Shown here: positions 1 to 23,140 of the stretch, one piece after another | Position numbering within the stretch: the stretch's first letter is position 1 | Layout of the letters: each line of letters begins with the position of its first letter | Assembly: GCF_001735745.1 (NCBI RefSeq) | Contig: NZ_CP017260.1 | Location: 1,140,001 to 1,172,000, forward strand | Reading direction: 5' to 3' | Length of the DNA: 32,000 nt | DNA from: Formosa sp. Hel1_33_131 | GTDB lineage: Bacteria; Bacteroidota; Bacteroidia; Flavobacteriales; Flavobacteriaceae | The notes under the pieces: generated by a model | The model's input: only the letters and a program-made list of their open reading frames with translations | Told to the model about the DNA's origin: nothing | The model's database searches: none | Made by a program: the position numbers and the translations under genes

Positions 1-832
1 GAGTGGATTTTATAGGAACTATTTTATGTTTTCAATGCATTTATCTTTTCAATGTAAAATATGATTTTAGCTGACTGGCCTTCCCTGTTACGGGGTCATT
101 GTAATCTAATACAAACCAATAATCGCTAGACGGGAGACGTTCTCCGTTAAAAGTCCCATCCCAACCCTTACCTGTTGGACTGATTTGTTTTAACAATTTG
201 CCGTAACGGTCAAATATATAAGTTTTTGAGCTAGATTTCACTGTCATTCCTACGATATTCCATGTGTCGTGATATCCATCGCCGTTTGGTGTGAAAAATT
301 TTGGGTATCCTATCACTATTTTTCTATGAGTAATCTCATTACAGTTCAAAAGATCCCGTACATAAATAATATGTTCCCCTATCCTAACATTTTCAAATAG
401 GGTCTCCCGCTGCCAGGGTCCAAAATCAACTCTATACTCATAAACGCCTGTGCCTACAACGCTAACTTCTAGTTGATTATTGTCTGAAAACACGGGGGAT
501 AGTAGTGTGACATCTATGCTTTCGGGAGGATAGGAGCTTACGACTTCGGTGCTGGCTGGTATGCGACAACCGGAGGCGAGGTTCGTTGCGAGTACAGTGT
601 AGATGCCTTCTGAGTTTGGAGAGAAGGTGGCGCTGGTGGCGCCGGGTATTATAAAACTATTGGGGTCAAAATCAACTTCTTCGATGCTGCCCTTGTACCA
701 TTGAAAACTGTAAATGGCAGTACTTAGCTGGGTGTCGATTGGGGGGATGGGTAAAAATGTTTGGGTGACTGGACTAATGACTTGGTCGTTTTTGTTTAGA
801 CAGATCATATAACGGTCTAAGATGCCTATTTC

Positions 833-2943
833 GGGGACGGGATTGACAATGATGGTTAAGGGAATGATTATAAAGCAGTGATTTAATTTTGGTTTGACCC
901 GAATATAGATTTCCTGTGTCAGAACAATGGTGTTTTCAAAGTTGGTGGGGTCTGCAATATTGTTTGTATTGCCTGATTGTGCATCCATTTGGTCTTCGTA
1001 GTAGCTGATGTCAAAGTCTGCGGGGTTGAGTCCGTTTAATATTTGGGTTTCTCTTAATGTTAGATCAAAGTAATCAAAGCCGTTGTTGTCGATCTCACAT
1101 TCTTCTATCGGGGTGGGGGTTTTGTTTACATTGGCGTACAATACGGTGATTAAGTCTAGGGTGATGGTTTTTGTACATTGGTTGGTGCCTGTGGCGAGTA
1201 TGAGGATTGTTCTTGTGAAGGTGTTGTTTGTATAGGTTGTTGGATTGGGGATTGGATTGTTGGTGTCTAAATCCTGTTGGGTTTCAAAGTAGCTTAGTAC
1301 GATGCTGGGGTCGTTGTTTGTGATTTGGTCTTTTCGGATGGTTAAATCATAGACTGTGGTTACTTGGTCGTTACATTCAATGATCGGATCGGGAGTGAAT
1401 AGAACGGGGTTTAAATTTACGTGTAGTTGAAAGTTGATGTCGGTGCGCACGCATTCTCGTACATCTAGATTCATGTTGTTGTCTGGGTCAAATTGGGCTC
1501 TTACGTAAATGGTTTGGGGGTTGGTGGTGTTTGAGTAAGTGTTTGGATTTGGAATGGGGATGTTGTTTATGGCGTCTTGTTCACTTAGGTGGTAGCTGAT
1601 CAGGATGGGGGTGGTTTGACTGCCTATGAGTTCGGTGTCTTTGGTGGTTAAGTCAAAGGTGGTTTGAGTCGTGTCGCTACACAAAACATAGTCTGTAATG
1701 GTGTTTCTGTTGGGAAGGGGGTCAACGTTGAGGGTGATGTGGTGTCCGAGTCCCAAACAGGCATTGACATCGTTACTGTCGACACGGGCATAGATGTTTT
1801 GGGTGGTGGGATTTGCGCTGTTTCTGTATTTGGTGATGTCTGCTATGGGATTGGTCTCGGCTAGGGCATCGGCTTCTGAGATATAATAGGAAACGGTGAG
1901 GTTCTGATTGGTTGGAAGTTGGGCAAGGACTTGAGCGGTGGCATCACTAAAATCAAATACGGCAACGCCATTGGAGTTGTCGTTATCGACTTCTGTGTCG
2001 TCACAAACATAGTATTCTAGTTGAAAGGTGGAGGGGATGAGTGTGGCGCCTACGACTAAATTTATTTTTGAGACTCTAAAACATCCATGGATGGTTTCGG
2101 CTCGTGCATAGACAATACTCATTACTGGGGTTGGGTTGGTGTAAATGGTGGGAGTGGTGATCTGATCTGCTAGAAGGCCCATTTCTGCCTTGGCTGAACT
2201 CAGGTAGTAGGTGAAGGTTTCATTGGTATAGTCACTGGATATGAGTTGATTGGCTTCGGTTAAGTTAAAATCGGTAATACCATCGGTGTCGGTGTCGCAT
2301 TGCTTGAGGATGACTTCTAAATTCGCTACAGGTAACGGGTTGACTATGAGTTGAAAGTTGCTGGTGCCAAAACAGTCGACATTTAATTTGTTTTCGAGTC
2401 GTGCATAAATAGTCTGGGGGTTAGTGGTGTTTTGAATGGGGGGGGGGTGATCTGGGTGCCGTCCACAGCTGCATCGGCAGCAGCCTGATCGTAATAGAAT
2501 TTAACGGTATATTCAGAGGCCAGTTGAGAACCCAAAACCTCCGGAGTCTTAGTGCTTAAATCAAAGGTTACAAGTCCGTTGGTGTCGTCGCCATCGACTG
2601 CATCGTCGCAAAGACTGAAGTCATTCACAGAGGAAATTGAAGGTTCTGAAAAAACATTAAGCGTAAACGAAACGATTTCATAACACCCTGAAGTCAAATA
2701 TTCAAACCGACCGTAAATAATTTGTCCATGTACCCCTGAGAAAGCTGCTGCATCCGTCACTGAAATTGGATTGGTATCTGCATCTGCATCCGCTTGAGAC
2801 GTATGATATGTTAAAACAAAATCGGTTGGATTGGGATTGGGTGCAACTATAATAGCATCATTTTGAGAGAGATTGAAAACAACAGAGTTCGTCCCTGTTG
2901 TATCACACACAAATAAATCAATCGGATTTGCATGAATTAATTC
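833..2943 (-). repeat. Array of at least 7 tandem ~75-95-aa protein modules inside the adhesin gene
   Basis: Recurring pattern C-D-x(n)-F-D/N-L ... [ST]-[YF]-[YFH] ... D/E-A ... NPI ... IY-[AVG]-R ... C ... L-x-V-N-P. Examples: LTYHTSQADADADTNPI, VKFYYDQAAADAA, VSYYISEADALAETNPI, ISYHLSEQDAINNIPI, LSYFETQQDLDTNNPI, ISYYEDQMDAQSG. Boundaries are approximate. Confidence 0.6.
2438..2447. repeat. G10 homopolymer (C10 on the coding strand) at the frameshift point of the adhesin gene
   Basis: Counted directly: ggg at 2438..2440 plus ggggggg at 2441..2447. The coding strand reads ATC ACC CCC CCC CCA TTC. Confidence 0.95.
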
Positions 2944-4501
2944 TGGAATAACCTCAATGCAAACTTCTTTTGTAGATTCACAACCAAAATCATCCATGAC
3001 ACGATAGGTATAACAAAAGTTCCCGTCTGATGGTGGCTGTACAGTGATTATATTCCCCGAGGTATTGGTGATGGTGCTATTCGCATCCCAAGCTTCCGAA
3101 GTAATCACAGGAGTAAAAGAAATTTCTGGGGGTTGAATTGTAGGATCAAAATTTAAACCCCATGAGAAAACATACCCATTATCATAAACTTGATTATCCG
3201 TAATTTCAATACACCAATCTCCGTTTAAGGGGCTTCCAAGGAGTTGACTAAAAGATTGTACTGGTAAATAAACGCCAGGCACGACAGAAGCGCTAGGTGG
3301 GTTTGACCCAGCTATAACAGTAGTGCCGTTGAAAAGAAGTGTCGTTGCTGACATGGAAAAACAATAATCTGCTCCAACTCCAGCAACCGTAGATTCATCG
3401 TCATTAGGCTCTCCTAAATAAAGATTGCCACCACTTGGATATTCATGAAGTATAACTTCTTGTCCACTGGGACTGACAATCTTAATCTCTAAATCTTCTA
3501 GAAAAGAATGCTCTATATTGACACATATTTCTAAAAGTTGGTTAATAGCATCAAGGGTTTGATTAGATTCATAACAATCTATCGCTACACAAGTAGTATA
3601 AACAGCCCCATCTCCATCTGGCAAAAACGTTACGCCACTCACTGGAGGTGAACACTCACTTAAAAAAGAAACCCCTTTTGCAATTCCAGTGATTGTGGTT
3701 GATTCTCCAAAACAGAGGGTGGATTTTGTAGCGACTGTGCCTGTGAAATCAACAGGGGGAGCTACCTGAACGACTTGGTTTAATAAATTTGTATTTTTAC
3801 AACCTGTTGGGTCAATGCTTGTATTGGTATCAGAAATATTTAGATTTACTATATAGACTCCTGGTGTTGCATAAGAGAATGTAGCTGTTTGACCACTTTG
3901 TGTTGTCCCATCTCCAAGATTCCATTCATAAGAAGCACCAGCACCACTCGTTCCAAACTGTCCACTGCCTGTTAAGGTAATTTGTTCGTTGGGACATACC
4001 CGTATATATCCATCTGTATTAGGAGCTGGAACCGCTGTATCTATTTGAGAAATAATGGTCTGGCAAGGTTCATAACAGGAGATGTTTGCCGTCCAACCAT
4101 TGGCAGTTGTGGTTCCATCACTCACAAACCCTAGTGTTAAACAGCCAGAAGTGTTGGTCGCTTGGATCACTCCAGGGCTCATAGTTCCTGAGTAAGTACC
4201 GATAATAGGATCTGAAATACTTTGTCCATCAAAAATAACTAAGATATCCGTATTGGCTTGAGTATCAAAAGTCGTAAACTCTAATTTAGTGGATTGTCCT
4301 GCGTTTTGAGGACAAATTGTAAGGGTATAGTTTTCATTATCTGAGTAAACAGAATTTCCGCCTGAGTCAAATAAAACGCCGCTACATCGAGTGAATGTAC
4401 CATTTTGCATGTTGATGTCTTGCGCAAAAGCAATACAGCTGACAAGACCAAAGAATGCTGAAAGTAGGGTTTTCATTCTTAATATTTATTTGGGTGTCCT
4501 C

Positions 4502-12736: not shown

Positions 12737-13258
12737 TTATGTTCTATCCGTCTTATAACCAATCTCTTTTCGAGGTTTCTCTTTTGGTTTAGAAAATAAT
12801 CGCTGAAGCACTTCATAAATCTCACTAAATTGTTCGTTGTTGCGTGATTCCATTTCATTGATTTTATGCATGATGTCATCATAGTTGTTCGCTAGTTTTC
12901 GCAGTTGCACAAAAGTCTCTATGATCTGTACACTCATTTTTACAGCTAACTCACTATTTAAGACGCTCGATAACATTAGGATCCCATGTTCGGTAAAAAC
13001 CTTTGGTAGAACTGGGGAGAACTTTAATTTTTTTAGGCGGTCGCAATTTGCGACTAGCTGATTCTTTTCTTCTTTTGTCAGTTCAAACATAAAGTTAGAA
13101 GGAAAGCGGTTATTATTTCTTTTTACTTGTTCGTTCAAGCGTTTTGTCGTTACACCATAAAGCTCTGCTAAATCTCTATCTACCATCACTTTTTGGCCTC
13201 TAATAACATATATCTTATTGATGATTACTTCATCTGGAATGGTGATTTTTTTATTCAT
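12737..13258 (-). CDS. ORF6N-domain (KilA-N superfamily) DNA-binding protein with a coiled-coil C-terminus, 173 aa
   Basis: IINKIYVIRGQKVMVDRDLAELYGVTTKRLNEQVKRNNNRFPSNFMFELTKEE matches the ORF6N pattern common in Bacteroidota. The C-terminal part is helical and charged. Confidence 0.8.
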   Translation of the reverse strand: MNKKITIPDEVIINKIYVIRGQKVMVDRDLAELYGVTTKRLNEQVKRNNNRFPSNFMFELTKEEKNQLVANCDRLKKLKFSPVLPKVFTEHGILMLSSVLNSELAVKMSVQIIETFVQLRKLANNYDDIMHKINEMESRNNEQFSEIYEVLQRLFSKPKEKPRKEIGYKTDRT

Positions 13259-13411
13259 TATTCTAAATTTGGTAGGTAAATTTACTATTTAATTTTTAAG
13301 GTGCCTATTTGGATTCTTAAAAATTTCAGCTTATCAGATGCTAGTTATTTACGTTGTGGGATACGTTTGCAAATTCTTTTTTTAAATAGTAATATTGGAA
13401 TGCAGTCGTAT

Positions 13412-13933
13412 TTATGTTCTATCGGCTTTATAACCAATCTCTTTTCGAGCTTGTTCTTCTGGTTTCGAAAATAATCGCTGAAGCACTTCATAAATCTCAC
13501 TAAATTGTTCGTTGTTGCGAGATTCCATTTCATTGATTTTATGCATGATGTCATCATAGTTGTTTGCTAGTTTTCGCAGTTGCACAAAAGTCTCTATGAT
13601 CTATACACTCATTTTTACAGCTAACTCACTATTTAAAACACTTGATAACATGAGGATGCCGTGTTCTGTGAATACAAAAGGTGGATACTTTGAATGTCTC
13701 CCTCTTTTTAAGGTCGCAATTTGCGACCTTAAAGAAGAATGTTCTTCAGCTGTGAGTTCAAACATAAAAGAATCTGGAAAACGATCTATATTTCTTCTAA
13801 CTTGTTCTTTTAATCTTTTGGTTTCCACATTATAAATCTCTGCTAAATCTTTATCTAACATCACTTTTTGATCTCTAATAACATATATCTTATTGATGAT
13901 TACTTCATCTGGAATCGTGATTTTTTCATTCAT
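13412..13933 (-). pseudogene. Second ORF6N paralogue, same 173-codon length, interrupted by one in-frame TAG at 13601..13603
   Basis: From the ATG at 13933 (MNEKITIPDEVIINKIYVIRDQKVM...) the frame reads ...AVKMSV-TAG-IIETFVQLRKLANNYDDIMHKINEMESRNNEQFSEIYEVLQRLFSKPEEQARKEIGYKADRT-TAA. Copy 1 has CAG (Gln) at the equivalent codon. The ORF-track pieces 13601..14011 and 13345..13557 are an over-extended N-terminal fragment and an out-of-frame artefact. Confidence 0.75.
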
Positions 13934-14051
13934 TATTCTAAATTTGGTAGGTAAATTTACTATTTTAATTTTTATGGTGCCATAAAAATTAAGTACAAAA
14001 AAACCTCCCAATAAAAATCAGAAGGCTTGATATAATATAGTTTAGTACAGC

Positions 14052-14840
14052 TTATTTTGCGTAACTAAATACTTTTGTTTCACGATCCATCCCACCAATA
14101 TAAGTTAAGATTTCATCGCTGTGAGAATCGATTACTGACCAGAATTTTTTATCATCATCGGTCATTGGACCTCCTAAATTAGCTTCTTCATAAGCTGCAA
14201 AGTCAGACCAAGTATTGTAAACCTGGTAGGTATGCCAGCTTGCTCCTGAGCCGTAAAAGTGACGACTTGCATAGGCTGCTACTGCAAGACCACTGTCTTT
14301 CAACGTCTTTAAACTTCCGTTTTTGACTCCGTCAGCAAAGACACCGTTTCCACCCCATTTAGTATTGTAAGTGCTTACAACTACCACTTTTTTAGTACTC
14401 CAGTCTAAACCTTCTGTTTCGAAAGACATATCTTCTAAACCTTTACTTTGTCTGATTTGATCAGAATGGCCATGCACATACATCGCAACATAACTTTGGT
14501 ATTCTGCCATAAGCGCTTCTTTTGCTGCGTCGTCTAACTTCATAGCATCCACATTGGCTTCCATGGCGGCATTTGCAAGAGCAGAATCGTTTACTAAATC
14601 TTGTTCGTTTGCATAAAAATCGTAAGTAGCAAAAGTATAATCGCCTGCAAATGCATGCGCGAACATTCCAGCTCCTGTAAGGGTTCTGTCCTCAGACATT
14701 GAAAGGTTTGTGAATTTTTCATGCAATTCTAAAAACGACTCAGAGTCTTGTCTTGGTACAGAAATATAGGTAATGTTAACGACTTGTGCCGTTACTGCAA
14801 ATCCTACGGTTAAAAATAATGCGGTAATAAAATTTTTCAT
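14052..14840 (-). CDS. Secreted hypothetical protein, 262 aa, possibly two tandem alpha+beta domains
   Basis: Signal peptide MKNFITALFLTVGFAVTAQ. I recognise no family. Only 34 nt separate it from the upstream lipoprotein gene and there is no -7 box between them, so co-transcription is likely. Confidence 0.6.
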   Translation of the reverse strand: MKNFITALFLTVGFAVTAQVVNITYISVPRQDSESFLELHEKFTNLSMSEDRTLTGAGMFAHAFAGDYTFATYDFYANEQDLVNDSALANAAMEANVDAMKLDDAAKEALMAEYQSYVAMYVHGHSDQIRQSKGLEDMSFETEGLDWSTKKVVVVSTYNTKWGGNGVFADGVKNGSLKTLKDSGLAVAAYASRHFYGSGASWHTYQVYNTWSDFAAYEEANLGGPMTDDDKKFWSVIDSHSDEILTYIGGMDRETKVFSYAK

Positions 14841-14874
14841 AATTGTTATATTTAGTTAATGTTGGTGTTTGATA

Positions 14875-15429
14875 TTATTTTTTGATTGTTTTCTTAAACT
14901 GATTCCACTGCGTCACTTTTCCGTTAACAATGTGGTAGTATTCGTAGTACACTTCTGAATCAATATCTGAATCTGGATCCGTGTTTTCAGTTGTAAACTG
15001 CGCATTTACCCAGTCGCCAGAATCCATCGTCGTTTCTTCTGACCCATCATCTGTTAGTGTCAATGAAAACGCATAGTCTGTAACCCATTGATTGTTGCCA
15101 CCAGTCTCAGATGCCGCAGCATCGTTTTTGATTTTATCCACAAATTCTTGAGGGCTTGTTGCTACAAATCCATCATCAAAATTAAGAGAGGCTTTGTCCG
15201 CAATAAATGTTTTCATTAGCTCATAATCACGTTTTCCCCATGCAGCATCGAGTTGATTAAAAACGTCTAAAGCAGCAGATGAACCCATTTTTACTTGGTA
15301 ATCCGTTCCCGTTAAAAACCCATTTGTAGGGACATCGCAAGGAGGTGTCTCAGGACAAGGCGTTGTTTCAGCGCAAGACGTAAAAACGAGTGTGAAGATT
15401 AATCCTAAAATTGTAAGTATATTTTTCAT
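14875..15429 (-). CDS. Lipoprotein of unknown function, 184 aa (possibly NTF2/SnoaL-like fold)
   Basis: MKNILTILGLIFTLVFTSC has a lipobox Cys. The -7 box TAGATTTG lies 23 nt upstream of this ATG and inside the longer ORF-track version (to 15528), which favours the shorter start. Confidence 0.6.
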   Translation of the reverse strand: MKNILTILGLIFTLVFTSCAETTPCPETPPCDVPTNGFLTGTDYQVKMGSSAALDVFNQLDAAWGKRDYELMKTFIADKASLNFDDGFVATSPQEFVDKIKNDAAASETGGNNQWVTDYAFSLTLTDDGSEETTMDSGDWVNAQFTTENTDPDSDIDSEVYYEYYHIVNGKVTQWNQFKKTIKK

Positions 15430-15452
15430 AAATCTAATAAATTGGTTAGCTT

Positions 15453-15460
15453 CAAATCTA
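15453..15460 (-). promoter_or_regulatory. -7 box TAGATTTG for the lipoprotein / secreted-protein pair
   Basis: Plus strand caaatcta. Located 23 nt upstream of the ATG at 15429. Confidence 0.45.
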
Positions 15461-15663
15461 CTCTTATTAATTGTAAAATACAAGTTAATCTGTTGTTGAT
15501 GAAGTTTCAGACATGACTTTTCACTCATTTATCGTAATGGATGCGCTTAAAATTATAATTACTTTTTTTATAATAAATTCGCTAAAAATAGTTCTTTTAG
15601 GTCGCTTAGAGTCATTGGGGAAAAGACTAAAAGCCAGCAGCTGTCAATTTGATAACTAGTGTA

Positions 15664-15906
15664 TTATTCATAACAATATCCATCTCCTTCATTGTGAGAA
15701 TTAAATACATCTTCGCTAACCACTAAATTAATGTCGGCGTATCCATTAAGAGAACCATCAGTATCTAAATTGGAGGTGTCAAAATCTCCTACAAACACAA
15801 ACTCGTTTTCTGAAATTATTTTATCGATGATGGTAAAACAATTTTGATCATCGTCTGAACAAGAAAAGGTTAAAAAGGCGGAAATAAGAAGTAGTTTTTT
15901 CGTCAT
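15664..15906 (-). CDS. Small acidic lipoprotein, 80 aa
   Basis: MTKKLLLISAFLTFSC lipobox. Asp/Glu-rich mature part with Cys near both ends. A -7 box lies 17 nt upstream. Confidence 0.55.
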   Translation of the reverse strand: MTKKLLLISAFLTFSCSDDDQNCFTIIDKIISENEFVFVGDFDTSNLDTDGSLNGYADINLVVSEDVFNSHNEGDGYCYE

Positions 15907-15923
15907 TGAATTGGTTTAAAATA

Positions 15924-15931
15924 CAAATATA
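15924..15931 (-). promoter_or_regulatory. -7 box TATATTTG for the 80-aa lipoprotein gene
   Basis: Plus strand caaatata. Located 17 nt upstream of the ATG at 15906. Confidence 0.45.
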
Positions 15932-16042
15932 ATTAGTTTTATATTAAAATCAATTTGTTTCAAAAAAAATGAATTCGTGAAGATGAAATCAACCTTCGGT
16001 TTTTCTCATATGCGCTGTTCTTTCAGACCAGACGTCTTAAAA

Positions 16043-16086
16043 CAAAAAAAACTTACGCAAGCAAGCTTGGTAAGTTTTTTTGTTTT
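16043..16086. terminator. Bidirectional intrinsic terminator downstream of tRNA-Ala
   Basis: An A-run at 16044..16051, a hairpin at 16051..16075 (acttac / gtaagt outer stem plus caag / cttg inner stem with one bulge), and a T-run at 16075..16081 followed by g and tttt. Read on the minus strand, the hairpin is followed by T8. Confidence 0.65.
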
Positions 16087-16113
16087 AATTCGCAGTCGCA
16101 CTGCGCTTCATCG

Positions 16114-16187
16114 TGGAGAAGATGAGATTCGAACTCACGACCTCTTGACTGCCAGTCAAGCGCTCTAGCCAACTGAGCTACATCCCC
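16114..16187 (-). tRNA. tRNA-Ala (anticodon GGC), 74 nt, CCA not encoded
   Basis: Minus strand GGGGATGTAGCTCAGTTGGCTAGAGCGCTTGACTGGCAGTCAAGAGGTCGTGAGTTCGAATCTCATCTTCTCCA. It folds by hand into a cloverleaf with anticodon stem CTTGA/TCAAG, loop CTGGCAG, T-loop TTCGAAT and the G3:U70 alanine identity pair. There is one U6-U67 mismatch in the acceptor stem. Confidence 0.9.
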
Positions 16188-18913: not shown

Positions 18914-19675
18914 ATGACGGCTATAAAAATTCCCGAAGGGAAAAAAATATACTTTGCTTCTGACAACCATCTTGGTGCGCCGACGGCCAAGGAGTCTATG
19001 CCTCGCGAAAAAAAGTTCGTGCAATGGTTGGATTCTATCAAGCACGATGCGGAGGTTATTTTCTTATTAGGCGATTTGTTTGATTTCTGGTTTGAATATA
19101 AATATGTCATCCCAAAAGGGTTTACACGGGTGTTAGGGAAATTGGCAGAGCTGAGCGATCAAGGCATTGAAATTCACTTTTTTGTAGGGAATCACGACTT
19201 GTGGATGAATGGCTATTTCGAAGAAGAGTTGGGCATTACTGTACATCATCAACCTCAAGAATTTACCTTCAATTCAAAATCCTTTTTTATTGGTCACGGC
19301 GATGGACTTGGCCCGGATGACAAAGGATTTAAACGTCTCAAAAAAGTATTTACAAATCCATTTTTTAAATGGTTATACAGATGGATACACCCTGATATTG
19401 GCGTTCGTTTTGCGCAATACCTATCGGTTAAAAACAAAGTGATTTCGGGGGATGAAGACGTGAAGTTTCTTGGAAATGACAAAGAGTGGTTGGTGCAATA
19501 CAGTCTTAAAAAATTAGAAGAAAAACACCGCGACTATTTTGTGTTTGGACACCGGCATTTACCACTAGAAATTCCGCTTAATGAGCAGTCAAAATACATC
19601 AACCTTGGGGACTGGATTGGCTATTACACCTACGCCGTTTTTGAAGTCGACACCTTGACGTTGAAAGAATTTTAG
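18914..19675 (+). CDS. lpxH: UDP-2,3-diacylglucosamine diphosphatase, 253 aa
   Basis: Calcineurin-like metallophosphoesterase motifs in LpxH order: FASDNHLG, LLGDLFDFW, VGNHD, IGHGD, FGHRH. Confidence 0.8.
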   Translation: MTAIKIPEGKKIYFASDNHLGAPTAKESMPREKKFVQWLDSIKHDAEVIFLLGDLFDFWFEYKYVIPKGFTRVLGKLAELSDQGIEIHFFVGNHDLWMNGYFEEELGITVHHQPQEFTFNSKSFFIGHGDGLGPDDKGFKRLKKVFTNPFFKWLYRWIHPDIGVRFAQYLSVKNKVISGDEDVKFLGNDKEWLVQYSLKKLEEKHRDYFVFGHRHLPLEIPLNEQSKYINLGDWIGYYTYAVFEVDTLTLKEF

Positions 19676-19701
19676 ACGTTTAACTCATGCCTACAGTTAG
19701 A

Positions 19702-19733
19702 TTTTTGATGTGACATTTATTTTTTTGATGTGA
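19702..19733 (+). promoter_or_regulatory. Two exact 12-nt direct repeats TTTTTGATGTGA, spaced 20 bp start to start, upstream of the VTC cassette
   Basis: Copies at 19702..19713 and 19722..19733. A near-consensus -7 box TAAGTTTA at 19744..19751 follows 10 nt later, and the ATG is at 19765. Confidence 0.4.
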
Positions 19734-19764
19734 AAAAAAATCGTAAGTTTATCCAAATTAACCA

Positions 19765-20505
19765 ATGGACGTATCTAAATTATCAGGCTTTGCCTCTATT
19801 TCATTAGAGGAAATGAATGGTGTTTCATTATTGAAACGCGTTGATACGAAGTTCCTAACCACCACCTCTAAATTGTCTGAACTTTTACCGTACCTCTATT
19901 CTGAATATCAGATTTTAGAGATTGGTGAAAATCGGTTGATGAATTATTCCACCCTTTACTTTGACACAACAGATTTGCACTGCTATAAAGAACACCACAA
20001 CGGTAAAGCAAACCGTCACAAAATAAGAATGCGGAGGTATGTTGAGTCGGATATTTGTTTTTTAGAAGTTAAAGAAAAACAAAACACTGGAATGACCAAC
20101 AAAGTGCGTTGTTCAATTGATGATTTTGAAATAACCTTATCAACAGAATCAAAAAAGTTTATTGAAAAGGCTACTAAAAAAGACTGGGAATTAAAGCCCG
20201 TTTTAAATAATTATTTTCAACGTTTTACATTGGTAAACACCCAACGGTCCGAACGTGTGACCATAGATACGGGTTTGGAATATAAAACAGATTCAACCAC
20301 AAAAGAATTTAAAAATGTGGTCGTTATTGAAGTCAAACAAGAAAAACGAAATACAAGAACTCCTATATATAGCACACTAAAATCTAAGAGAATTAGAACC
20401 GTAAGTTTTAGTAAATATTGTATGGGTGTTGCCAACATTTTCTCGGGCGTAAAGTCTAACAAGTTTAAAGAACTCAACTTAAAAATTAACCAATTAAATC
20501 ACTAA
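19765..20505 (+). CDS. VTC-domain (polyphosphate-polymerase-like, CYTH/triphosphate-tunnel fold) protein, 246 aa, soluble
   Basis: Charged motifs spaced as beta-strand rungs: RVDTKF, YFDT, NRHKIRMRRY, FLEVKEK, VVIEVKQE, FSKY. No hydrophobic segment. Confidence 0.75.
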   Translation: MDVSKLSGFASISLEEMNGVSLLKRVDTKFLTTTSKLSELLPYLYSEYQILEIGENRLMNYSTLYFDTTDLHCYKEHHNGKANRHKIRMRRYVESDICFLEVKEKQNTGMTNKVRCSIDDFEITLSTESKKFIEKATKKDWELKPVLNNYFQRFTLVNTQRSERVTIDTGLEYKTDSTTKEFKNVVVIEVKQEKRNTRTPIYSTLKSKRIRTVSFSKYCMGVANIFSGVKSNKFKELNLKINQLNH

Positions 20506-20506
20506 C

Positions 20507-21103
20507 ATGGAGCTACTAGGCATTCCTATATTCGATGACGACTTTTACAAAATGATGATTCGATTTTTGTTGAATTTATTTTTCCTAACTGGAATTGTAA
20601 AATTTATCTATTATAAATACCATCAGAAGAAAGAGTATTTATTCACCTTCTACCTTATTGGAATTGTCGTTTACTTTTTGTGCTTTACATTAAAAAAGTA
20701 TGAATTGGATCTCGGGATGGCTTTGGGATTGTTTGCTATTTTTGGGATCATCCGTTACAGGACACTTCCTTTAGAGGTCAAAGAAATGACCTATCTGTTT
20801 GTGGTGATTGGCGTCGCAGTGATGAATGCCCTTTCAAACAAAAAAATGAGTTATGCAGAAATTATCGCAGCCAATACAATTATACTGTTGGCTTTATACG
20901 TTCTTGAACGCTATTGGGCGCGAACAGAAATAGTCTCTAAGGATGTGATTTATGAAATTATTGAAAACATTCGCCCTGAAAATCATGACTTACTCAAAGC
21001 AGATTTAGAAAAAAGACTTGGCTTTGAAATCCTAAGCTTTGAAATTGGAAAAATAAATTTCTTAAAAGATGTCGCCAAAGTAACTGTCTATTATAAACTT
21101 TAA
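20507..21103 (+). CDS. DUF4956-like integral membrane protein, 198 aa
   Basis: About five hydrophobic helices (LLNLFFLTGIVKFIYY, YLFTFYLIGIVVYFLCFTL, LGMALGLFAIFGII, YLFVVIGVAVMNAL, IIAANTIILLALYVL) plus a ~55-aa soluble tail. The start is 1 nt after the VTC-gene stop. Confidence 0.7.
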   Translation: MELLGIPIFDDDFYKMMIRFLLNLFFLTGIVKFIYYKYHQKKEYLFTFYLIGIVVYFLCFTLKKYELDLGMALGLFAIFGIIRYRTLPLEVKEMTYLFVVIGVAVMNALSNKKMSYAEIIAANTIILLALYVLERYWARTEIVSKDVIYEIIENIRPENHDLLKADLEKRLGFEILSFEIGKINFLKDVAKVTVYYKL

Positions 21104-21111
21104 TTTTGACT

Positions 21112-21867
21112 ATGAACTTATCTAAGCAAAATAACACCGTATTCGCATTCATTGTATTTATATTAACGTCCTCTAATTTGTTATTGGCTCAAAACTCAAA
21201 GGATTTAGAGGGATGGAGCGCCGTACAGCTAGATGTAAGAGCAAGTGAAAAAATATCCTTTTCCATTTCGGAACATCTAAGGTATCGAAATGACATTACG
21301 ACTGTCAGCACCTATTTTACGCAAGTTGAAGCAGGTTATGAAATCGTTAAAGATTTTGAACTCGGAGGCGGGGTTCGATTCATTAAAAAAAATGACGATG
21401 TTGGCAAAAAGCAAGGAGTTGAATCGCACTTCAGATATCAATTGGATGCAAGCTTCAAACATGATGTCAAGAGAATAGGCGTATCTTACCGTCTTAGATA
21501 TCAAAATAAAAATGAATTAGGGTTCTCCAAAGAGGAAGGTGATATCGCAAAAGAACGATTCCGATTCCTGTTTGGGATTGACTACAAATTCCTTCCTATT
21601 AATATCGTTTTTAAATTAAAAGGGGAGTTTTTTAGTCCCTTTTCTAATTGGACTGTTGCTGATAAAATTGATCGACAACGCTTTACATTATCAGCCTCTC
21701 GGAAATTTAATAGATTTGGGAAAATAGCAGTTTTCTACAGGCTTCAAGATGACTTAAATGTGGAGGTGAAAAAAACCGAAGTTACAGTTTCAAAATCGAT
21801 TTTAGGGTTTAAATACACATACAGTTTAGATTTTAGAAAAACGGATGAATCCTTAATCGAGCTTTAA
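21112..21867 (+). CDS. DUF2490-like outer-membrane beta-barrel protein, 251 aa from the ATG
   Basis: Signal peptide MNLSKQNNTVFAFIVFILTSSNLLLAQ. Alternating hydrophobic/polar strands with Tyr/Arg/Phe girdles, and YTYSLDF near the C-terminus. The ORF-track start at 21106 is a TTG; the ATG is at 21112. Confidence 0.65.
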   Translation: MNLSKQNNTVFAFIVFILTSSNLLLAQNSKDLEGWSAVQLDVRASEKISFSISEHLRYRNDITTVSTYFTQVEAGYEIVKDFELGGGVRFIKKNDDVGKKQGVESHFRYQLDASFKHDVKRIGVSYRLRYQNKNELGFSKEEGDIAKERFRFLFGIDYKFLPINIVFKLKGEFFSPFSNWTVADKIDRQRFTLSASRKFNRFGKIAVFYRLQDDLNVEVKKTEVTVSKSILGFKYTYSLDFRKTDESLIEL

Positions 21868-21871
21868 ATTA

Positions 21872-23140
21872 TTAATCTTGAGTTTCATGCGCATCCAAGT
21901 CTTTTTCTAGATCTAATTTTCGAAATGTTGGCGACACAATTCCCGTAGTAATCACCGTTATTAAGGTCATCGTTCCACCAAAAACAACCGCCGTAACGGT
22001 TCCCATAAGTTTCGCAGTTACGCCACTTTCAAAAGCACCTAGTTCATTTGAAGATCCCACAAACATAGAATTTACAGAGGACACACGGCCCCGCATATGA
22101 TCGGGTGTTTTGAGCTGTAAAATGGTTTGTCTGATCACCATAGAAACCCCATCCGTGACCCCACTAAAAAAGAGCGCAACGACTGATATCCAAAAGATAG
22201 AGGACAGTCCAAAAACAATAATACACACGCCAAATCCGAAAATGGCGGCTAACAATTTGAGTCCCGCATTTTTACTGATAGGAATGTAGGCCGTAATCAG
22301 CATGGTAATGAATGCCCCAACCGCAGGAGCGGCTCTTAACACTCCAAACCCTTCTGAGCCTACTTCTAAAATATCTTGTGCAAAGACGGGAAGCAAAGCG
22401 ACTGCACCTCCAAAAAGAACGGCAATCATATCCAAGCTTAACGCCCCTAAAATCGCTTTTGTTTTAAACACAAATCGAACTCCTTCTTTTAAACTTTGCA
22501 TAATGGGTTCTCCGATTTTTGGATTCAAGATGGGTTTGCGAGAAATTCCAAACAACAATATAAAGGACAAAACAACCAAGCCAAACACAATGCACAGCGA
22601 CCAATGCACCCCAATCCAATTGATTGTAAAACCTGCTAAAGCAGGGCCTAACATAGAAGCCATTTGCCAGGTTGAGCTGTTCCATGTTGCCGCATTTGGA
22701 TAGGCTTTTTTAGGCACGATCAATGCGACCAACGAAAAAATAGTGGGACCAAAAAAAGCACGTAACAATCCACCCATAAACACAAATGCATAAATTGTAT
22801 AGAGAATGGTTTTTGAGCTCCAATCCGCTTCAACAGAAGGACTGGTTAAAAAGAAAAGCCCAAAACTAATCAATGAAAACAGGCCTATACATTTCAAGAG
22901 TAAATTTCGTTTTTCACTTTGATCGACAATATGCCCTGCAAACAACGCCATACTAAAGGCAGGAATAATTTCCATAAGCCCAATAATCCCCAGAGACAAC
23001 GGGTCTTTGGTGAGTGTATAAACTTGCCATTCAATGATGATAAATTGCATGGACCAACCAAAAACTAAAATAAATCGCAATAACAGAAAGATATTAAATT
23101 CCTTAAATCGAAGTGCCGCGTAAGGATCTCTTTTTGCCAT
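21872..23140 (-). CDS. MFS transporter, 422 aa
   Basis: Twelve hydrophobic segments in a 6+6 layout. The start is 1 nt after the recJ stop. Confidence 0.85.
   Translation of the reverse strand: MAKRDPYAALRFKEFNIFLLLRFILVFGWSMQFIIIEWQVYTLTKDPLSLGIIGLMEIIPAFSMALFAGHIVDQSEKRNLLLKCIGLFSLISFGLFFLTSPSVEADWSSKTILYTIYAFVFMGGLLRAFFGPTIFSLVALIVPKKAYPNAATWNSSTWQMASMLGPALAGFTINWIGVHWSLCIVFGLVVLSFILLFGISRKPILNPKIGEPIMQSLKEGVRFVFKTKAILGALSLDMIAVLFGGAVALLPVFAQDILEVGSEGFGVLRAAPAVGAFITMLITAYIPISKNAGLKLLAAIFGFGVCIIVFGLSSIFWISVVALFFSGVTDGVSMVIRQTILQLKTPDHMRGRVSSVNSMFVGSSNELGAFESGVTAKLMGTVTAVVFGGTMTLITVITTGIVSPTFRKLDLEKDLDAHETQD

Follow-up and report, generated by a model that had tools for sequence, protein, structure and literature searches.

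The stretch of DNA discussed here (hereafter the window) comprises 32,000 nucleotides of Formosa sp. Hel1_33_131, a marine flavobacterium, and corresponds to positions 1,140,001 to 1,172,000 of contig NZ_CP017260.1. It contains three tightly packed genes on one strand – genes 1, 2 and 3 (Table 1) – whose products belong to the Pfam families VTC, DUF4956 and DUF2490, respectively, and whose close homologues carry the product names ‘polyphosphate polymerase domain-containing protein’, ‘DUF4956 domain-containing protein’ and ‘DUF2490 domain-containing protein’ in their sources. A preliminary description of the locus, made from the sequence, had proposed these families and had read the trio, bounded by an 89-bp gap upstream and a convergent gene downstream, as a self-contained operon that may make polyphosphate and move it across the envelope. 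The layout that it gave is exact to the base, including the gap and the convergent gene: 1 nt separates the gene 1 stop codon from the ATG of gene 2, and 8 nt separate the gene 2 stop codon from the ATG of gene 3 (for which the in-frame TTG at 21106 could also serve as the start). The family assignments were borne out by profile hidden Markov model searches, in which all three proteins score far above the gathering thresholds.

Bacterial polyphosphate is commonly equated with PPK1/PPK2 chemistry and pictured as granules in the cytoplasm. The three proteins have no Pfam or NCBIfam match to a PPK family; NCBIfam holds no model for any of them, and PADLOC, which searches for anti-phage defence, likewise has no model for them and gives no hits. 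Taken together, the observations described below make the cassette a well-supported candidate for a third bacterial polyphosphate synthase.

The three encoded proteins

By its sequence, gene 1 is of the VTC type and not of the CYTH type: it matches Pfam VTC (PF09359) with an E-value of 3.7e-32 (112.2 bits against a cutoff of 23), with residues 25-225 covering positions 2-234 of the 235 in the profile, and gives no Pfam match to CYTH even at E 10. No hydrophobic segment is present (the highest Kyte–Doolittle score over 19 residues is 0.65), in keeping with the soluble protein that had been proposed. The family is very large: at E<=1e-3 it comprises 3873 cluster representatives (50% identity), of which the best 150 are stand-alone proteins of about 226-319 amino acids, mostly near 250. 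Alignment of 122 members, 36-52% identical to gene 1, leaves 23 columns invariant – R25, K29, Y61, Y65, D67, H77, R84, K86, R88, R90, Y92, E101, K103, K113, R115, R153, R164, D168, E189, K191, S216, K217 and N232 – and the six charged motifs singled out earlier, which start at residues 25, 65, 83, 99, 186 and 215, fall on such columns. The ratio of non-synonymous to synonymous substitution rates (dN/dS) of gene 1 is 0.07-0.12.

A phmmer search of the PDB with the single gene 1 sequence returned nothing relevant, and the profile of the 122 sequences matched the catalytic domains of yeast Vtc2 (3g3o, E 9.6e-6) and Vtc4 (3g3q, E 1.2e-5). Vtc4 numbering was obtained along the alignment as chain index + 185, which places R264, R266, E426 and K458 where the literature names them. 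In this profile alignment, gene 1 K29 corresponds to Vtc4 K200, R88 and R90 to R264 and R266, K103 to K281, K113 to K294, F151 to Y359, R153 to R361, R164 to R373, E189 to E426 of metal site 1, K191 to K428, and the pair S216/K217 to S457 and the catalytic lysine K458. The basic tunnel residues K29, R88, R90, K103, K113, R153 and R164, together with E189 and S216-K217, are invariant in all 122 sequences. The alignment with Vtc4 that had been suggested as a check thus finds the tunnel Lys, Arg and Glu residues conserved, catalytic lysine included.

One region tells polymerases apart from tunnel enzymes of other kinds. In hydrolases and cyclases, Glu residues of strand 1 and of a late strand form an acidic patch that binds a second, water-activating metal (PMC4641920); the pattern followed here was ExExK on strand 1 and ExE on the last strand. 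Vtc4 has basic residues at this patch, uses metal site 1 (E426) only and depends on the catalytic Lys-458 (Martinez et al. 2015, PMC4641920). Gene 1 reads R25-x-D27-x-K29 on strand 1, against R196-x-T-x-K200 in Vtc4, and E189-x-K191 on the late strand, as in E426-x-K428 of Vtc4; it is Vtc4-like at two of the three patch positions that can be aligned, R25 and K191 being basic. The residue pattern of gene 1 therefore looks like that of a polymerase rather than a hydrolase, and Vtc4-like transfer of phosphate to a growing chain would be the most economical chemistry for it.

Gene 2 matches DUF4956 (PF16316) with an E-value of 2.3e-47 (161.3 bits against a cutoff of 30.6). Its hydropathy profile contains three strong and two weaker hydrophobic segments, in line with the approximately five transmembrane helices and soluble tail that had been anticipated, and AlphaFold2 places helices at residues 11-38, 43-64, 68-84, 91-109 and 116-140, with low confidence in the membrane part. 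A C-terminal strand–helix–strand–strand (β-α-β-β) domain spans residues 142-197, with a predicted local distance difference test score (pLDDT) of 73-85. As the homologues in the model’s alignment were at least 82% identical, conclusions from it are limited to secondary structure. The acidic N-terminus and the distribution of Lys and Arg mildly favour a topology with the N-terminus outside and the C-terminus inside. The residues invariant across phyla (Y35, G74-L75-F76-A77, R85, T95, Y96 and F98) define a core that runs from the third helix through the next loop into the fourth. Searches with the fold gave only non-significant matches, headed by ACT-domain proteins (AcuB, TyrA and NikR; best E 0.1), the family profile had no match in the PDB, and sequence searches linked gene 2 to no family other than DUF4956. 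The dN/dS of gene 2 is 0.04-0.13.

Gene 3, finally, matches DUF2490 (PF10677) with an E-value of 6.1e-19 (68.9 bits against a cutoff of 29.8) and no other Pfam family, Porin_O_P (PF07396) and KdgM included; DUF2490 is cited in PMC4827864 as TCDB 1.B.81, a putative porin. The signal peptide and barrel that had been predicted for it agree with a single hydrophobic segment at residues 8-26 (a signal helix at 6-25 in the model) and with a confident AlphaFold2 barrel of 11 long strands (pLDDT 84.5, from an alignment with 120 diverse homologues). Every significant PDB match in the fold search is a membrane β-barrel; among solved barrels of comparable size, the 12-stranded NanC porin fits best, with template-modelling scores (TM) of 0.45/0.53, which amounts to a generic barrel match. 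Strand faces were assigned by hydrophobic parity, and not read from model coordinates. On this assignment, the lumen side has 23 Lys/Arg against 15 Asp/Glu, and all invariant or near-invariant arginines (R57, R89, R108, R127, R151, R190 and R210) point inwards; conserved acids (D95, E104, D112, E135 and E172) lie on the lumen side too, and many of the lumen arginines have conserved acidic partners. An anion-selective lumen would fit this pattern.

The expectation of one component per compartment agrees with the hydropathy of the three proteins and with the model of gene 3; that of gene 2 is of low confidence.

Gene order, neighbourhood and phylogenetic reach

Conservation of the trio in Bacteroidota was measured from the DUF4956 side: a genome scan anchored on this family yielded 80 loci from Flavobacteriales, Cytophagales and Chitinophagales, in which the members of the trio were found with profiles built in this analysis. 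The order VTC>DUF4956>DUF2490 on one strand is present in 71 of the 80 loci, and one further locus keeps the order with a split DUF4956. Seven loci have DUF4956>DUF2490 only, and two lack DUF2490, one of them at a contig end. DUF2490 thus follows DUF4956 in 78/80 loci, and VTC adjoins DUF4956 in 72 of the 78 that are informative. Spacing is as tight as in the window, with a median of 1 nt from the VTC stop to the DUF4956 start (range -13 to 14, n=72) and of 5 nt from the DUF4956 stop to the DUF2490 start (n=78), and overlaps between the genes are frequent. All three genes are under purifying selection (dN/dS 0.04-0.18). In published work, BT3498-99 of Bacteroides thetaiotaomicron are a DUF4956 and a DUF2490 gene.

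The flanks vary while the trio persists. The closest relatives – the nearest loci come from Formosa-type metagenome-assembled genomes, with gene 2 about 95% identical – have MatE, QueD-like and LpxH-like genes upstream, as does the window. In loci whose DUF4956 is 93-94% identical, other genes (e.g. a sulfatase) take this upstream place. The LpxH-like, QueD-like and MatE genes were therefore rejected as members of the operon, as they flank the trio in its nearest relatives only.

Beyond Bacteroidota, the search was a tblastn of gene 1 against plasmids and chromids, which gave 16 full-length hits, and nine loci were inspected: two each from Deinococcus and Aminobacter, and one each from Shinella, Nitratireductor, Nonomuraea, Streptomyces and, in decayed form, Pseudoalteromonas. 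DUF4956 abuts VTC on the same strand in all nine, and published work adds the same adjacency at the pel loci of Streptococcus, Clostridia and Bifidobacterium. The outer-membrane partner is confined to diderms, as DUF2490 in Bacteroidota (80 loci) and as a Porin_O_P porin in a single Pseudoalteromonas locus. Co-occurrence and gene order, which the preliminary description had put forward as a check, thus extend well beyond this genome, for the trio within Bacteroidota and for the VTC–DUF4956 pair across phyla.

A fourth gene recurs at these loci. In 29 of the 80 Bacteroidota loci, the gene after DUF2490 on the same strand encodes a secreted or lipoprotein CotH kinase (PF08757, E 3e-59), whose signal peptide ends in Cys. 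The position of CotH is not fixed: the order is CotH>VTC>DUF4956>DUF2490 in Polaribacter sp. KT25b (locus L090, 1414-5373) and CotH>VTC>DUF4956 in Deinococcus taeanensis. It occurs solely in loci that bear VTC (28/28 informative cases, in addition to Polaribacter) and never in a locus without it. The lineage of the window has no CotH at this locus, and no match came up when all six frames of the window were searched with a CotH profile from the Bacteroidota loci. The authors of a study of Streptococcus intermedius reported the cotH–VTC–DUF4956 set at pel loci only; in our data VTC–DUF4956, with or without CotH, is instead widespread outside them.

Genes for YHYH-domain, SCO1/SenC, EF-hand and MORN-repeat proteins also recur, on either side, beside CotH–VTC–DUF4956–DUF2490 in several Flavobacteriaceae (locus L090 of Polaribacter sp. 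KT25b, and gene clusters 9, 18 and 21 in L024, L031, L043 and L050).

The gap upstream of gene 1 contains a Bacteroidetes-type -7-like box, TAAGTTTA, and a box of the TAnnTTTA type is kept at the same distance from the VTC start in orthologues of the locus, including those with another upstream gene. Of the two promoter features described earlier, the box is the conserved one. The tandem direct repeat is real, but it is not conserved: relatives that are about 95% identical have GATTTGATTTGA at the corresponding place in their promoters, and the repeat was rejected as a conserved regulator site. A scan with the sigma-70 consensus found 6 sites against 9.0 expected from shuffled sequences, and terminator counts were likewise at or below the shuffled expectation; the consensus is uninformative for this phylum, as is the terminator scan.

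Table 1. Positions of the trio and of other features in the window
Feature	Position	Strand	Remarks
Promoter-bearing intergenic gap	19676-19764	+	89 bp, 5' of gene 1
-7-like box	19744-19751		13 nt 5' of the gene 1 ATG
Tandem direct repeat	19693-19712 and 19713-19732		20-nt units, 85% identical
Gene 1 (VTC)	19765-20505	+	246 amino acids; stop TAA 20503-20505
Gene 2 (DUF4956)	20507-21103	+	198 amino acids; ATG 20507, stop TAA 21101-21103
Gene 3 (DUF2490)	21112-21867	+	251 amino acids from ATG 21112
MFS transporter gene	21872-23140	-	convergent; ends 4 nt past gene 3
LpxH-like metallophosphoesterase gene	18914-19675		upstream of the gap
Probable surface protein genes (two)	41-4476	-	712 and 696 amino acids
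Region resembling an island or prophage remnant	12737-16187	-
ORF6N/KilA-N genes (two)	12737-13258 and 13601-14011	-	paralogous
Reading frames without a family (two)	14052-14840 and 14875-15528	-	beside the ORF6N/KilA-N pair
tRNA-Ala(GGC)	16113-16187

The window as a whole is densely packed, with 34 open reading frames of at least 120 amino acids in 32 kb. The other genes scanned are housekeeping genes: MatE, the QueD-like gene of the 6-pyruvoyl-tetrahydropterin synthase (PTPS) family, the LpxH-like phosphoesterase, RecJ, biotin carboxylase, FabH, PdxA, MscL and MscS. No PPK, PPX or CotH family was matched among the scanned reading frames of at least 120 amino acids, six near the 3' end lying outside the scan. 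The metallophosphoesterase just upstream resembles LpxH (UDP-2,3-diacylglucosamine diphosphatase); at 90.9 and 76 bits, it falls well short of the respective NCBIfam equivalog cutoffs of 134 and 190 bits. Further away, two paralogous ORF6N/KilA-N ‘anti-repressor’ genes, two reading frames without a family and a tRNA gene together resemble a small island or the remains of a prophage, and two large probable surface proteins are encoded near the window’s start, the longer with a CHU_C type IX secretion sorting domain and the shorter with CUB, PKD and proprotein-convertase P domains.

What the cassette may do

We tentatively read the cassette as a split bacterial VTC-type polyphosphate polymerase–translocase joined to an outer-membrane anion barrel, and give this reading a little less than an even chance. 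Its strongest element is that the VTC protein and DUF4956 would work as one inner-membrane unit, followed by the proposal that diderms have added an outer-membrane barrel to the same pathway. We further infer polymerase activity, the product, its outward transport, a physical complex of gene 1 with gene 2 and a barrel that forms an open conduit.

In mechanistic terms, gene 1 would be a cytoplasmic Vtc4-type tunnel enzyme that transfers the γ-phosphate of ATP to a growing polyphosphate chain, using one metal site (E189) and the catalytic lysine K217, with a basic track leading the chain out of the tunnel. It would dock on gene 2 – probably an oligomer – through the cytoplasmic C-terminal domain of the latter. 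As a polytopic inner-membrane protein, gene 2 would take the place of the transmembrane channel of Vtc1/2/3/4, and the chain would be threaded into the periplasm during synthesis. Gene 3, a small barrel with a predicted Arg-rich lumen, could then provide the outer-membrane passage for the polyanion or for its breakdown products. In the four-gene form of many relatives, the CotH kinase, located outside the cytoplasm, would probably act on the product or together with it, and this genome would hold a reduced, three-gene form.

The compartments fit this scheme, gene 1 being soluble, gene 2 polytopic and gene 3 a barrel with a signal peptide. Two further considerations concern direction. PMC4641920 cites polyphosphate synthesis and translocation by eukaryotic VTC as coupled; by analogy, the product of gene 1 would leave the cytoplasm. 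An extracellular phenotype is known from S. intermedius, where Pel-dependent aggregation drops when the DUF4956-like gene and the CotH gene are deleted, and this phenotype, the secreted CotH kinases and the linkage to exopolysaccharide loci point outwards. That polyphosphate is both made and exported by the trio, as had been suggested, is an idea to which the present data give a modified shape, since CotH is often present as a fourth gene, pairs without VTC exist, and the neighbours in other phyla are phosphate-acquisition genes.

Several observations weigh against the polymerase–translocase interpretation. On strand 1, D27 (residues 25-29 are encoded at window positions 19837-19851) is at least 90% conserved in the bacterial family, at a position where Vtc4 has Thr-198 and hydrolytic enzymes have Glu; it is possibly a remnant of the second metal site. 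The closed eight-stranded β-tunnel is attributed to gene 1 on sequence grounds, and the searchable literature holds no biochemical assay of any bacterial VTC-domain protein. The AlphaFold2 model of gene 2 is poor overall (pLDDT 59.6, predicted TM-score 0.34), and a basic channel lining is not evident among its cross-phylum invariant residues. As for gene 3, a preprint describes a buried salt-bridge network in 238 of 2,789 DUF2490 models, and the lumen could accordingly be plugged rather than open.

The neighbourhood in other phyla adds to these points and raises the question of direction, as it consists of phosphate-acquisition genes: a phytase-like esterase follows the VTC–DUF4956 pair in Alphaproteobacteria, a PiT phosphate transporter is found near the pair as well in Nitratireductor, and in Deinococcus sp. 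QL22 the pair lies beside a HAD acid phosphatase and phnDCE. On a chromid of Pseudoalteromonas sp. CuT4-3 (NZ_CP142031.1; locus L085, 5520-7898), a porin of the phosphate-selective OprO/P family (Porin_O_P, E 2.4e-47) takes the place of DUF2490 and starts one base past the DUF4956 stop. OprO/P porins are uptake porins. Import would fit these neighbours at least as well as export, and the same machine could run inwards as a scavenger of exogenous polyphosphate or phosphate, with the barrel admitting the anion, DUF4956 passing it on and the tunnel enzyme pulling in and consuming the chain, e.g. by the reverse reaction (polyphosphate + ADP -> ATP) or by processive cleavage. For a marine, Formosa-type host this has some appeal, dissolved polyphosphate being a plausible phosphorus source for marine flavobacteria. 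We nevertheless consider the inward alternative rather improbable. Gene 1 lacks the water-activating acidic patch of the known tunnel hydrolases and keeps the polymerase-specific catalytic lysine invariant, and we know of no VTC enzyme for which the reverse reaction has been documented. The secreted CotH and the linkage to pel loci point the other way. Moreover, the yeast VTC genes are themselves phosphate-starvation genes, so that such neighbours are compatible with a polymerase and provide no argument against one.

A different challenge comes from loci in which the polymerase is missing or decaying. Five flavobacterial loci lack VTC and keep the flanks seen in the window, with MatE, QueD-like and LpxH-like genes upstream and MFS and RecJ genes downstream; their DUF4956 genes start, in locus coordinates, at 1482 (L033), 2845 (L040), 4960 (L042), 3999 (L073) and 8001 (L074). 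The encoded DUF4956 protein has 200 amino acids in L033 and 209 in the other four; in L040, 46 bp (2799-2844) separate the end of the LpxH-like gene from DUF4956, whose aligned sequence has an insertion ahead of the C-terminal domain. DUF4956 and DUF2490 are intact in these loci, with dN/dS of 0.04-0.17 (synonymous divergence being saturated), which means that the polymerase is not obligatory for the pair, at least as a neighbour. In the Pseudoalteromonas locus, a decaying module, VTC is a 104-codon remnant with the C-terminal motifs only (ELKQ...FSKYCIG), beside an intact DUF4956 and porin; a CotH-type LTD protein encoded upstream, a lipoprotein, is short. The membrane pair, then, has a life without a neighbouring polymerase. 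This persistence would suit the scavenger as well, and it is an argument for regarding DUF4956 and the barrel as an autonomous envelope unit – serving either as a conduit or to regulate the homeostasis of ions or phosphate, in the manner of MgtC-like proteins with ACT-like tails – to which VTC is an accessory that acts on another triphosphate substrate or merely binds a ligand. In the S. intermedius study, the DUF4956 homologue is described by its authors as MgtC-like with an ACT domain. MgtC/SapB proteins with ACT-like C-terminal domains resemble gene 2 in having several helices and a small β-α-β-β cytoplasmic domain, and the non-significant ACT matches of the gene 2 tail point the same way; in sequence, they are unlike gene 2, which has no Pfam MgtC match even at E 10, and the proposed relationship was rejected here on this ground, the failure of the family profile in the PDB adding to it. 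MgtC itself is a regulator and not a known channel. Yeast Vtc2 and Vtc3, for their part, illustrate that VTC domains can be catalytically inactive. The autonomous unit nonetheless appears doubtful to us, as the catalytic lysine and every substrate-binding residue are invariant in 122 diverse sequences, which would be unexpected for a mere binding module, and as VTC and DUF4956 remain neighbours in nearly all informative loci within and beyond Bacteroidota. Absence of VTC, furthermore, was seen at the locus, and a VTC gene could sit elsewhere in those genomes.

That the three genes are unrelated neighbours, packed together by accident in a compact genome, is the least probable explanation by far, and we give it hardly any weight. 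The dense packing of the window and the MatE, QueD-like and LpxH-like genes that travel with the cassette in its closest relatives are what such an accident would produce; yet order and strand are kept across three orders of Bacteroidota while the flanks change, and the VTC–DUF4956 pair is found in four other phyla. Chance adjacency is, for practical purposes, excluded by these synteny data.

If the polymerase–translocase interpretation is correct, the cassette would represent a new class of bacterial polyphosphate synthase, with thousands of clusters at 50% identity (the 3873 counted above) in at least five phyla; polyphosphate would be placed in the periplasm or on the cell surface, and it would suggest that the VTC complex of eukaryotes has a catalytic core of prokaryotic origin. 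In marine Flavobacteriaceae, it would also bear on how polyphosphate enters or leaves the pool of dissolved phosphorus; a complete genome sequence is available for one carrier of the module, Polaribacter sp. KT25b. The recurrent CotH partner suggests a more far-reaching idea, namely that secreted kinases may be fuelled by exported polyphosphate. In this extended form, which we regard as unlikely though worth stating, the cassette would be a third, PPK-independent and vectorial route of bacterial polyphosphate synthesis: a Vtc4-like polymerase seated on DUF4956 would extrude the chain, an arginine-lined barrel would carry it further in diderms, and the exported polymer would supply phosphoryl groups and energy to secreted CotH kinases and to the modification of matrix or surface polymers. 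The three-gene form of the window, in a streamlined marine flavobacterium, would then be a minimal exporter. Such a route would explain phosphorylation outside the cell, where ATP is absent.

Comparison with known systems

Parts of this picture are already known: the families are catalogued, the NCBI product name suggests the activity of gene 1, and the cotH–VTC–DUF4956 set has been drawn beside Gram-positive pel operons. The searchable literature holds no description of the Bacteroidota VTC–DUF4956–DUF2490(–CotH) operon and nothing on the porin substitution or on the variants without VTC, and mentions the biochemistry of bacterial VTC, DUF4956 and DUF2490 proteins incidentally at most. The statement in the preliminary description that the trio has no experimentally defined function agrees with this.

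With PPK1 and PPK2, the cassette would share the proposed product, polyphosphate made from ATP, and PPK1 likewise elongates polyphosphate through a tunnel. There is no sequence relation between these enzymes and the three proteins, and the cellular setting differs: PPK enzymes are cytoplasmic or peripheral and form granules inside the cell, whereas the system in the window is built around partners in the inner and outer membranes.

Synthase-dependent secretion – of alginate through Alg8/44-AlgE, cellulose through BcsA-BcsC, poly-N-acetylglucosamine (PNAG) through PgaCD-PgaA, and Pel – is a working analogy only. The shared plan consists of a cytoplasm-facing polymerase, a passage through the inner membrane and a dedicated barrel for an anionic polymer, all in one operon, and AlgE is among the weak fold matches of gene 3. 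The polymer of the cassette would be inorganic, however, and neither a glycosyltransferase nor a periplasmic TPR scaffold is part of it; the gene 3 barrel, at about 224 mature residues, is also much smaller.

Among outer-membrane proteins, OprO/OprP (specific for phosphate and pyrophosphate) and NanC/KdgM (for acidic oligosaccharides) are the natural points of reference. Gene 3 is likewise a small, monomer-sized barrel, and its likeness to them lies in a net positive lumen, as assigned by parity, and in one conserved arginine on most strands. The structural match to NanC is weak, at a TM of about 0.5, as generic barrel geometry would give; a true Porin_O_P member is found at the position of DUF2490 in Pseudoalteromonas.

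The Gram-positive pel accessory genes, represented by SIR_1594/1593/1592 of S. intermedius, are closer, with the same VTC and DUF4956 genes side by side and CotH as a recurrent partner. The window differs from them in having neither CotH nor pel genes, and in having the DUF2490 barrel, which monoderms lack.

The closest parallel is the eukaryotic VTC complex of vacuoles and acidocalcisomes (in yeast, Vtc4 with Vtc1 and Vtc2/3). The catalytic domain of gene 1 belongs to the same Pfam family and shares all the tunnel residues as well as the basic replacement of the acidic patch, D27 in place of T198 being the difference. Both enzymes come with an obligate membrane partner, a pairing suggestive of coupled synthesis and translocation. 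Gene 1, with its 246 amino acids, is the domain alone, without an SPX domain and without fused C-terminal transmembrane helices, and its partner DUF4956 has no detectable relation to the three-helix subunits of the Vtc1 type. The bacterial system adds an outer-membrane barrel and, often, a CotH kinase; its target would be the periplasm or the cell surface rather than the lumen of an organelle. By sequence, gene 1 is thus a member of the VTC family at the level of the domain, set outside the architecture of the eukaryotic VTC complex.

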